DNA of 4,812 nt from a virus (Duplodnaviria > Heunggongvirae > Uroviricota > Caudoviricetes). Positions 3,001-4,812 of this stretch are shown in pieces. A program made the position numbers. Location of the stretch: IMG/VR virus record IMGVR_UViG_2703718816_000008; one strand, 5' to 3'. How positions within the stretch are numbered: the first letter of the stretch is position 1; every line of letters begins with the position of its first letter.

Positions 3001-4812
3001 GGAATAAGCCACAATGGACGCCGGGTTAAACTGACTCTGCCACTGTTCAGGTGAAATAATCTTTTCCGTTGCCAGTGCTGTATTACCGTTTACATCAACA
3101 GATACCAGACCGTTTGTCCCGGCATAGAGTACGAATCCCTCCATCGCCACCATACTTCTTCGGCTCAGGCATGCCTGCATGGAAGGAATTCTGGAGCCAG
3201 AAATTGTGGACGGTGATACCCCACTGAACAGATAAGGCTCCCCCTTTGTCGCCACCACCAGTGACGTTCCCAGCGGACAGATAGCCACAATATCTTCTGC
3301 CGTCGTGTGACGATTCACTTCCGGCCATGCATACGGCAGATACGCTTCCGAAAACATCACTTCATTACCGGCAAACCCGGCGGCAATACCATTAGCCATC
3401 AGGCAAAGGCCTGTCATATTCTCTGGCGGCGGCAGGTAATCCCATGTCGCCAGAGAAGGTCCAAGGTTTTTCCCCGGTATTTTGTCCGTGTAACTGAGCA
3501 CGGATGCATCCAGTTCAGCCACAAGTAAAAAATCCGCCTCCCCTCCACCTGATGCAGAGCGATAAATCCGGCGGCGTTTAATACTGGCATTCTGCAATGG
3601 CACCGGAGACAGCGTCAGCTGTACCGCAGTCCCCGGAGTACGGAGTGTTACCTCCAGAGACGCCGGACCTGGCGGACCTTCTTCACCATAATCTGAGACA
3701 AAGGTTTCCGTATAAAACCGGGTTTCGTCATCATTCGGGTTATCGTCAGAAACATCACCGCCCTGCTGAACAGTACAGACAGGTGCTGTCGTCGGCGCGG
3801 GGATCCCCAGACGATACGATGATGCCGGATGATTCCCGTCCCCTTTTGTGGCAATGGTTGCATCCGTCACTTTAGGAAAACGCCCGTCAGTGTAGTAAAT
3901 ACGCCCGTGGGGGTCCTGAGCGATCGGACTGCGGATCACATCCACCACATCCGTCCATGCAAACCAGAAATCGTCACGGTAATGAAAAATTGTTTTTGGC
4001 TTAATTGTGAATGTTTTCTCAACCTCTGACATCTCGTGTTCAGGCGTGATCACGCCATAGCGAAAATGACAGTTTTCTGCCAGTACAGCAGAATTATCAG
4101 GAAGCATAGATGCAATAACGCCTGGCATCATCCCGCGCATAGTGGTTATATCGATATAAGGCATGGTTATCTGGTATCCGAAAATTTGAATGGCAGACGA
4201 GGTGGAATAATTAATCCCGGCACAATTTCACGACGTCAACCCGTACAGGAGTCGCTCTTACCGGCCCCCTCCCGGTGAAAACGCATATTGCTCTGTTTAC
4301 AAAAACCGCCCGTCCACATGCAGGGAATTCGCAATGTCCGGCGAAAATGGCATCGTAAATGAAGCATGTAATCGCGCACGGGAAAAATATGGATTTCCAA
4401 AAATCTGAATATTCTCCGCCGTGAAAAAATGCGAACAACATCACTTCACTAATCAGCCTGATATGGCATACTTAGCACGCTAACTATGATAACAAACTAA
4501 TACCCTAAAACTCATGGTTCCGGGACTGGTCGTGGTCCCGTTTTTTTTATTCAGCCAGCAGGCCATCCGACAACATAACTGCGGATCGCCTTCAGCTCTG
4601 TCAGCGCCTCAACCTCTGCTTTCATCTGCAACTGCCGTGTATTAATCTCCACTCCCTTCGCAAACATCGCCTGCTCTGTCGCATCTGCCAGCGCAATGAT
4701 GTCAGCCGCCGTTACCGGCACCACATTATTATCCCCGTCCGTCCAGGCAAAACCTTCCGGAAGACGGTTATTCTCTGCCATCAGGCGTGTCGTGCTTATC
4801 CTGGACAACGTC

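Follow-up and report, generated by a model that had tools for sequence, protein, structure and literature searches.

A repeat-bearing spacer in the tail region of a 933W-like prophage is very probably a scar of tail-fibre module exchange

What is the nature of a 386-bp gap that separates two tail genes of an Escherichia coli prophage and carries, on one strand, several similar copies of a short A-rich motif? The gap (positions 4165-4550) lies in a 4,812-nt stretch of DNA from IMG/VR record IMGVR_UViG_2703718816_000008, which we refer to in its entirety as the window, and it extends from the ATG of a gene for a 541-aa tail protein (4164) to the stop codon of a DUF4376 gene (4551). An initial annotation had seen in it an AT-rich spacer with a same-orientation array of GAAAA(A)T-TGRAT-like motifs, and had offered three readings: an activator-dependent late promoter or iteron-like binding array, A-tract curved DNA of the kind bound by H-NS, or the junction between two phage modules. 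Only the last of these is upheld by our analysis. Homology to Shiga toxin (Stx) phages stops at 4196 or 4164, homology to lambda-like prophages begins at 4251, and within the gap lie an opposite-strand pseudogene and a + strand terminator that had been overlooked. We conclude that the gap is very probably a mosaic recombination scar of a tail-fibre module exchange, and not a regulatory element.

The window is the tail region of an stx-negative, 933W-like (Sepvirinae) E. coli prophage and is 100% identical to DNA of strain ES5. Positions 26-4196 share 97-99.7% identity with short-tailed Sepvirinae Stx phages (Shigella phage 75/02, P13374, phi191 and TL-2011c), and all substantial open reading frames (ORFs) of the window are on the - strand. 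Proceeding upstream from the 541-aa gene, the gap begins with the native A/U-rich leader of that gene (4165-4196, - strand), which is devoid of a Shine-Dalgarno sequence, is common to Stx phages of the P13374/75-02/phi191 type, and holds motif copy 1 (in mRNA sense AUUCAAAUUUUC). It is followed by a 54-bp junction filler with no traced source (4197-4250), which carries a weak promoter-like TTGACG-17-GATTAA match, and by the 3' remnant of a YkgJ-family (CxxCxxCC) pseudogene on the + strand (4251-4408), which contains the motif copies at 4277, 4343, 4382 and 4399. The 3' untranslated region (3' UTR) of the ykgJ-like gene (4409-4520, + strand, 38% G+C), with a loose motif copy at 4423-4436 and a weak promoter-like match at 4463-4490, and the intrinsic terminator of the same gene (4521-4550, + strand) complete the gap.

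The identification of 4251-4408 as a YkgJ-family pseudogene remnant draws on RefSeq, Pfam and DNA identity, and agrees with RefSeq, which in ES5 lists window positions 4271-4408 (+ strand) as a partial pseudogene for a 'YkgJ family cysteine cluster protein'. Its 45-aa translation matches the C-terminal half of the Pfam CxxCxxCC domain (PF03692, a putative Zn- or Fe-chelating domain) with 23.0 bits against a cut-off of 23 (E-value 1.3e-4, profile positions 52-85), while the donor allele, as reconstructed from strain SHP24, reaches 44.9 bits. At the DNA level the remnant is 96% identical to the intact gene of locus L009, 88% to that of strain JE86 and 72-80% to K-12 ykgJ; relative to the K-12 gene, differences number 10, 3 and 28 at the first, second and third codon positions, respectively, and 34 of the 45 residues are identical. 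The homology begins at 4251, at about codon 58 of 109, and the promoter and about the N-terminal 60% of the gene are gone. The CMTCGACC motif of the genes in L009, L005 (JE86) and K-12 has no counterpart in the remnant, which thus possesses neither the CxxCxxCC cluster nor the ~109-aa frame; the frame that is left is disturbed at a run of C at 4265-4273 and closes with a TGA stop at 4406-4408. Intact 109-aa copies of ykgJ are found in lambda-like prophages, at the far end, where gpJ, lom, the side-tail-fibre gene and DUF4376 are succeeded by convergent ykgJ and then by the chromosomal gene potB. A more divergent copy adjoins a tRNA-Ser gene, and strain SHP24 holds a frameshifted full-length copy whose 3' UTR and terminator are those of the window. 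In strain cM8a (locus L004) the remnant has a 45-bp deletion, aligned to window 4262-4306 and located between ACCG microhomologies, which shows that it is still decaying. Two ORFs on the - strand of the gap (77 aa at 4211-4444 and 54 aa at 4236-4400) were judged spurious, given that they have no PHROG match, run antisense to the ykgJ remnant and are unannotated.

By terminator scan and fold energy, 4521-4550 is the predicted intrinsic terminator of the ykgJ-like gene: on the + strand, 4521-4540 form a hairpin of 8 pairs (5 of them G-C) with a 4-nt loop, followed by T8 (-11.9 kcal/mol), and the sequence is kept together with the donor arrangement in SHP24 and L009. It is like the Rho-independent terminators found between convergent phage genes in that a G+C-rich hairpin and T8 directly follow a 3' UTR, but the gene it serves here is dead. 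On the - strand no T-run follows the stem of the 4521-4540 hairpin and, for want of a U-tract in the direction of the late operon, the hairpin is not expected to stop late transcription. The stretch 4409-4552 occurs in 58 of 5426 E. coli genomes (median one copy), at or next to the 3' end of a tail-fibre-module gene, the neighbour being DUF4376 in nearly all of the 40 genomes listed among the 58.

From BLAST comparison of the ES5 region with donors and relatives, we observed that a block of 1253 bp, from window position 4251 to ~5503 in the genome, is 97% identical to the lambda-like arrangement in L009. The block, which is flanked by Sepvirinae homology on both sides, contains the 3' part of ykgJ along with UTR and terminator, DUF4376, and the 3' portion of the gene for the tail fibre. 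On the left, Sepvirinae homology ends exactly at the ATG at 4164 in 169 of 187 phages and at 4196 in the other 18; on the right, it resumes inside the tail-fibre gene, past an internally repeated stretch. Collagen-like repeats have been reported in the tail-fibre homologue of Sp5 (PMC5155283). Cargo and receptor-binding genes have a hot spot immediately upstream of the 541-aa gene, a slot occupied in other Sepvirinae by a gp38-like adhesin, by two small ORFs (Sp5 ORF68 and, presumably, ORF69), by Cor, or by DUF4376 with an Eib/YadA-like module.

We hypothesize that recombination placed a ~1.25-kb block, which in a lambda-like prophage had been located at the far end, in the tail-fibre slot of a short-tailed Sepvirinae prophage. 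The block would have brought with it the 3' portion of the gene for the side tail fibre, DUF4376, the terminator and the 3'-terminal 158 nt of ykgJ, the convergent cargo gene; both the direction and the mechanism of this exchange are what we infer. The left crossover, placed inside ykgJ, would have produced the promoterless, truncated and frame-disturbed remnant together with its 3' UTR and terminator (4409-4550), and the 54-bp orphan stretch would link the imported DNA to the native 32-bp leader of the 541-aa gene. This 54-bp filler (4197-4250) is present only in 17 E. coli genomes, all with the arrangement described here. Nothing in the phage collection matches it; when 185,579 species genomes were scanned for its 20-mers, only two chance hits were returned, in unrelated metagenome-assembled genomes, and local BLAST against all fetched loci gave no match. 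Some likeness that the filler bears, by eye, to the part of ykgJ just upstream of the junction was set aside as too weak to claim.

The repeats that had drawn attention to the gap are real: the three exact strings and the three looser copies are all located where they had been reported. The description of the gap as AT-rich is accurate only in a mild sense and was overstated, its G+C content being 44.7-45.1% against 48.2% for the window, with only 4409-4520 markedly low (38%). The pattern AAAATNTGRAT has three matches in the window, all on the + strand and all inside the gap, where 0.03 would be expected if the pattern had been specified beforehand, and GAAAA occurs in the gap five times on the + strand and not at all on the - strand, against 1.49 expected (p ~0.0065). 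Because the pattern was derived from the sequence itself, a shuffle test was needed, in which the best same-strand three-copy 11-mer with at least 9 invariant columns was compared with that in dinucleotide shuffles; 2% of the shuffles reach the observed value. The nominal excess over chance thus becomes modest once the post-hoc choice is allowed for, and the + strand of the gap has a modest but real compositional oddity. When one mismatch to AAAATNTGRAT is allowed no extra copies appear, so the 'looser copies' have little in common beyond GAAAA.

What the copies are becomes clear when they are read in the frame of the pseudogene. The copy at 4277 (GAAAACGCATATTG) is the Gly-Glu-Asn-Ala-Tyr-Cys codons of ykgJ, that at 4343 is Gly-Glu-Asn-Gly-Ile, that at 4382 (GAAAAATATGGATTT) is Glu-Lys-Tyr-Gly-Phe, and that at 4399 (AAAAATCTGAATATT) is Pro-Lys-Ile-stop; the copy at 4423 is within the ykgJ 3' UTR and the one at 4180 within the unrelated 32-bp leader of the 541-aa gene. 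The alleles of JE86 and K-12 retain the protein sequence (AKYGL, SGENG, GKNAC), and their DNA strings differ at synonymous positions. Given that four of the copies are ykgJ codons, and that differences within the gene are distributed over the codon positions as described above, the excess of GAAAA on one strand is mostly the coding signature of the opposite-strand gene. The three 11-mers were united by recombination and did not evolve as an array.

On the first of the earlier readings the copies would bind an activator or an iteron-binding protein, which in turn would drive an internal late promoter serving the 541-aa operon, a proposal for which the confinement of the three exact AAAATNTGRAT matches to the gap and to one strand would speak, as would the failure to detect a sigma-70 promoter or a Shine-Dalgarno sequence for the downstream gene. 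However, the segments that hold the copies differ in ancestry, copy 1 being in the Stx-phage leader and copies 2 and 3 inside the imported ykgJ coding sequence, and four of the six are ykgJ codons, of which the protein but not the DNA motif is conserved: in other ykgJ alleles the copies degenerate at synonymous sites. Copies 2 and 3 follow ykgJ to loci beside potB that have no 541-aa operon, the ykgJ stretch being found in other genomes next to potB or to a tRNA-Ser gene, away from any such operon, and only copy 1 is shared with relatives, namely the 75/02-type phages, so that the repeats are not inherited together with the genes they were supposed to regulate. Phages of the 933W type have no copy at all, and express the same essential gene behind a wholly different upstream sequence. 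Considering also the irregular spacing of the exact copies (203 and 16 bp) and a significance of only ~0.02 after the post-hoc choice of motif, we regard a regulatory array as extremely improbable. The observation that the downstream operon has no convincing promoter was nevertheless correct: a sigma-70 consensus scan (-35 and -10 hexamers, 16-18 nt spacing, at least 9 of 12 matches, invariant -10 A2 and T6) found no - strand site in 4000-4812. The TTGACG-17-GATTAA match (4239..4211, - strand) is present, and was rightly called weak. Were it a real constitutive promoter made by the junction, it would express the genes from the 541-aa gene through lom in the lysogen, and its -35 (5/6 matches) and 17-nt spacing are favourable; but its -10 matches at only 3/6 positions and is without the invariant final T, so that it failed the scan, it lies inside the 54-bp orphan stretch found in only 17 genomes, and functional relatives are without it. 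Such a promoter is in our view highly unlikely.

Two further readings concern the AT-rich part of the gap and a possible + strand transcript. Silencing of the downstream tail and lom genes in the lysogen by H-NS, bound to curved or AT-rich DNA in the gap, could be imagined in view of the 38% G+C of 4409-4520 and of the horizontal acquisition of the DNA, silencing of prophage DNA of enterohaemorrhagic E. coli by H-NS/Hha being documented in general (PMC13502914). Against this, the G+C content of the gap as a whole (45%) is near the window mean, a far more AT-rich stretch (24% G+C) lies elsewhere, at 268-357, and nothing ties any H-NS binding to the motif. The A-tract curvature that had been suggested is not borne out either, as AA/TT power at periods of 10, 10.5 and 11 is below the shuffle mean and is reached by 43-55% of shuffles; we therefore think H-NS silencing from the gap improbable. 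About as improbable is that the + strand of 4463-4550 still makes a ~50-60-nt small RNA derived from the 3' UTR, starting from ATGGCA-16-TATGAT and ending at the ykgJ terminator. The succession of a promoter-like sequence (4463-4490) and a canonical terminator (4521-4550), the 95-100% conservation of the whole stretch wherever it is present, and the small RNAs, such as HnrS and StxS, that prophage late regions are known to encode speak for the idea. Yet the promoter matches at 9/12 positions, and such matches are no commoner than in shuffles; Rfam (E-value mode, whole window) gives no family, the fold of 4409-4555 is not unusual (z -0.58), and conservation is no higher than in the neighbouring pseudogene. 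An identity with HnrS (EcOnc10-12), a lead from PMC13502914, was rejected on genome distribution: HnrS would be expected in several copies in O157:H7 and other genomes positive for the locus of enterocyte effacement, within prophage late genes, and the present stretch occurs in 58 of 5426 genomes with no O157:H7 among the 40 listed, the other 18 being unlisted.

How, then, are the genes downstream of the gap expressed? The ES5 element is a complete-looking lambdoid prophage that adjoins ynfH and has no stx. It encodes N, cro, cII, a repressor like cI, an integrase, the nin genes and the antiterminator Q, and after Q come the lysis, terminase, portal, capsid and tail genes, all in the orientation of Q. 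By gene order the counterparts of the 541-aa and 422-aa genes in Sp5 are ORF70 and ORF71, both essential if tails are to form (PMC5155283), and the two genes must therefore be expressed as late genes. The late genes of Stx phages lie downstream of Q in the orientation of Q and are described as Q-controlled (PMC8136144; PMC7547250). Since Q and the morphogenesis genes are co-oriented in ES5 and Stx-phage late genes are under Q control, reading through the gap is the economical explanation: an antiterminated polymerase from the late promoter would pass through the gap into the 541-aa gene and beyond, and no promoter of its own would be needed. Q-antiterminated late read-through is thus the most likely mode of transcription of the downstream genes.

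Several observations weigh against the interpretation of the gap as a recombination scar with no regulatory role. The exchange does not explain the 54 bp at 4197-4250, for which comparison with phages, E. coli genomes and species representatives yielded no relative outside the 17 genomes of the same arrangement. The low frequency of the three-copy motif in shuffles (2%, nominally less than chance would give) or the strand bias of GAAAA (p ~0.0065) could be taken as a signal. A transcription start site may lie inside the gap. Finally, the tail-fibre gene of ES5 (which is chimeric), the adaptor gene and a DUF6645 gene are annotated as frameshifted (L001 13078-15748; L013 4292-6227), the DUF6645 gene occupying the position that stx has in Stx phages, and the ES5 prophage may accordingly be defective, with expression that does not follow the canonical late programme.

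The translation start of the 541-aa gene raises a question of its own. As the initial annotation had stated, its ATG has no Shine-Dalgarno sequence, the closest GGA being 12 nt upstream. Comparison of the leaders at window 4165-4196 (- strand mRNA), L007 7140-7185 and L002 9140-9171 revealed that two unrelated leader types precede the conserved ATG in Sepvirinae: the 933W type has an AAGGAA Shine-Dalgarno sequence seven nt upstream of the ATG, and the type shared by the window, 75/02, P13374 and phi191 is A/U-rich (AUUCAAAUUUUCGGAUACCAGAUAACC) with no Shine-Dalgarno sequence. Phages with the latter leader are infectious, and it is presumably functional. A longer, 563-aa start annotated in Shigella phage 75/02 was rejected as the conserved start given that homology ends exactly at the ATG at 4164 in the great majority of phages (the 169 of 187 mentioned above), and the N-terminal extension of the 563-aa protein is not conserved in the window. 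It is possible that the 32-nt leader without Shine-Dalgarno sequence, with motif copy 1, is a specialised translation-initiation element, alternative to the AAGGAA leader.

It is likewise possible that the terminator and the 3' flank of ykgJ act as a recurrent homologous 'linker' for swaps of receptor-binding cassettes between lambda-like and Sepvirinae prophages. Traces of the lambda-like end region occur in at least three different Sepvirinae spacer types. The broader idea that a ykgJ coding remnant is present in every Sepvirinae spacer type was upheld only in part: the 75/02-type spacer weakly resembles the 3' end of ykgJ (73% over 51 nt, E-value 1e-5 in a tiny database), a resemblance that was lost in a stricter run, and the spacer types of 933W, KY173 and the second O104:H4 prophage match only the terminator region downstream of JE86 ykgJ, and not ykgJ itself. 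Taken jointly, the end of the lambda-like late operon as recurrent linker and the leader as specialised initiation element make a doubtful proposition, to which we would give only a small chance.

The preferred reading, a mosaic scar of tail-fibre module exchange, has close parallels in known systems. Sequences from the ykgJ/ecpE region have already been described in lambdoid prophages (Nakamura et al. 2021, PMC8112680), and share with the remnant their origin in the same chromosomal ykgJ region, but the 'attB-in-PP_2' of that study, which is intergenic between ykgJ and ecpE and upstream of ykgJ, is absent from the window. With the ykgJ-like cargo at the ends of lambda-like prophages the window shares the 3' part, 3' UTR, terminator and convergent DUF4376 gene at 96-97% DNA identity. 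In contrast to that cargo, only the last ~158 nt of the gene are present here, without promoter and CxxCxxCC motif, and they are internal to the late operon of a short-tailed prophage instead of at a prophage end. The sharp breaks of homology at gene borders, the alternative cargoes in one slot and the right-hand junction near a repeated stretch of the tail-fibre gene are as in other lambdoid mosaic module boundaries; here a long-tailed lambda-like prophage would have been the donor and a short-tailed one of the Sepvirinae the recipient, with a piece of opposite-strand cargo carried along, none of which is unusual.

We stress that the scar is an ordinary one: lambdoid phages routinely show mosaic joints that hold remnants of genes, and the pseudogene is already in RefSeq. 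The value of the finding is mainly in annotation hygiene, as what seems to be a non-coding repeat spacer can hide an opposite-strand pseudogene remnant, whose codon usage (Glu-Asn, Glu-Lys) can mimic a DNA motif. The probable move of a tail-fibre cassette from a long-tailed lambda-like to a short-tailed 933W-like prophage bears on the evolution of host range in Stx-type phages, and is an event of a well-known kind.

Signs of other exchanges were seen as well. The cM8a prophage also has a truncated DUF4376 gene with a gene for a gp38-like adhesin as its neighbour, suggestive of a second, nested exchange in this slot. A module of the Eib type (YadA-like, immunoglobulin-binding) was found together with DUF4376 in two loci, L015 (JNEC-KY173) 3501-6878 and L005 (JE86) 4716-7679, and in two settings, once where a lambda-like prophage ends and once in the tail-fibre slot of the Sepvirinae; it is a further example of cassette traffic between long-tailed and short-tailed prophages.

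The remaining ORFs of the window, all on the - strand, were assigned by ORF, Pfam and PHROG searches. Upstream of the gap is the 3' end of the DUF4376 gene (4551-4808, cut by the window end), which encodes a tail-fibre-assembly-like protein (Pfam PF14301, E-value 1.2e-10; RefSeq 'DUF4376 domain-containing protein') and lies inside the imported lambda-like block. The first gene downstream of the gap is the 541-aa tail gene (2539-4164), a homologue of 933W L0124 that has no Pfam domain and matches phrog_511 ('internal virion protein') with an E-value of 2.9e-276. The match covers only positions 319-859 of the 862-position profile, and some relatives therefore carry ~318 extra N-terminal residues. 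The 422-aa tail-tip-fibre gene (1274-2542; Pfam Phage_Tail_Tip) follows, its start codon overlapping the stop codon of the 541-aa gene (ATGA, 2539-2542), which suggests translational coupling of the two tail genes. The rest of the window holds two small genes and the start of an Ail/Lom gene. Between that start and the gene for a 205-aa 'membrane associated protein' lies the stretch 268-357, the most AT-rich of the window, which is a better candidate than the gap, be it for the promoter of a cargo gene or for a site of H-NS. We also noted a gene for a Hok/Gef family toxin (L001 7054-7194), which follows lom in the late regions of the ES5 prophage and of related Stx phages.

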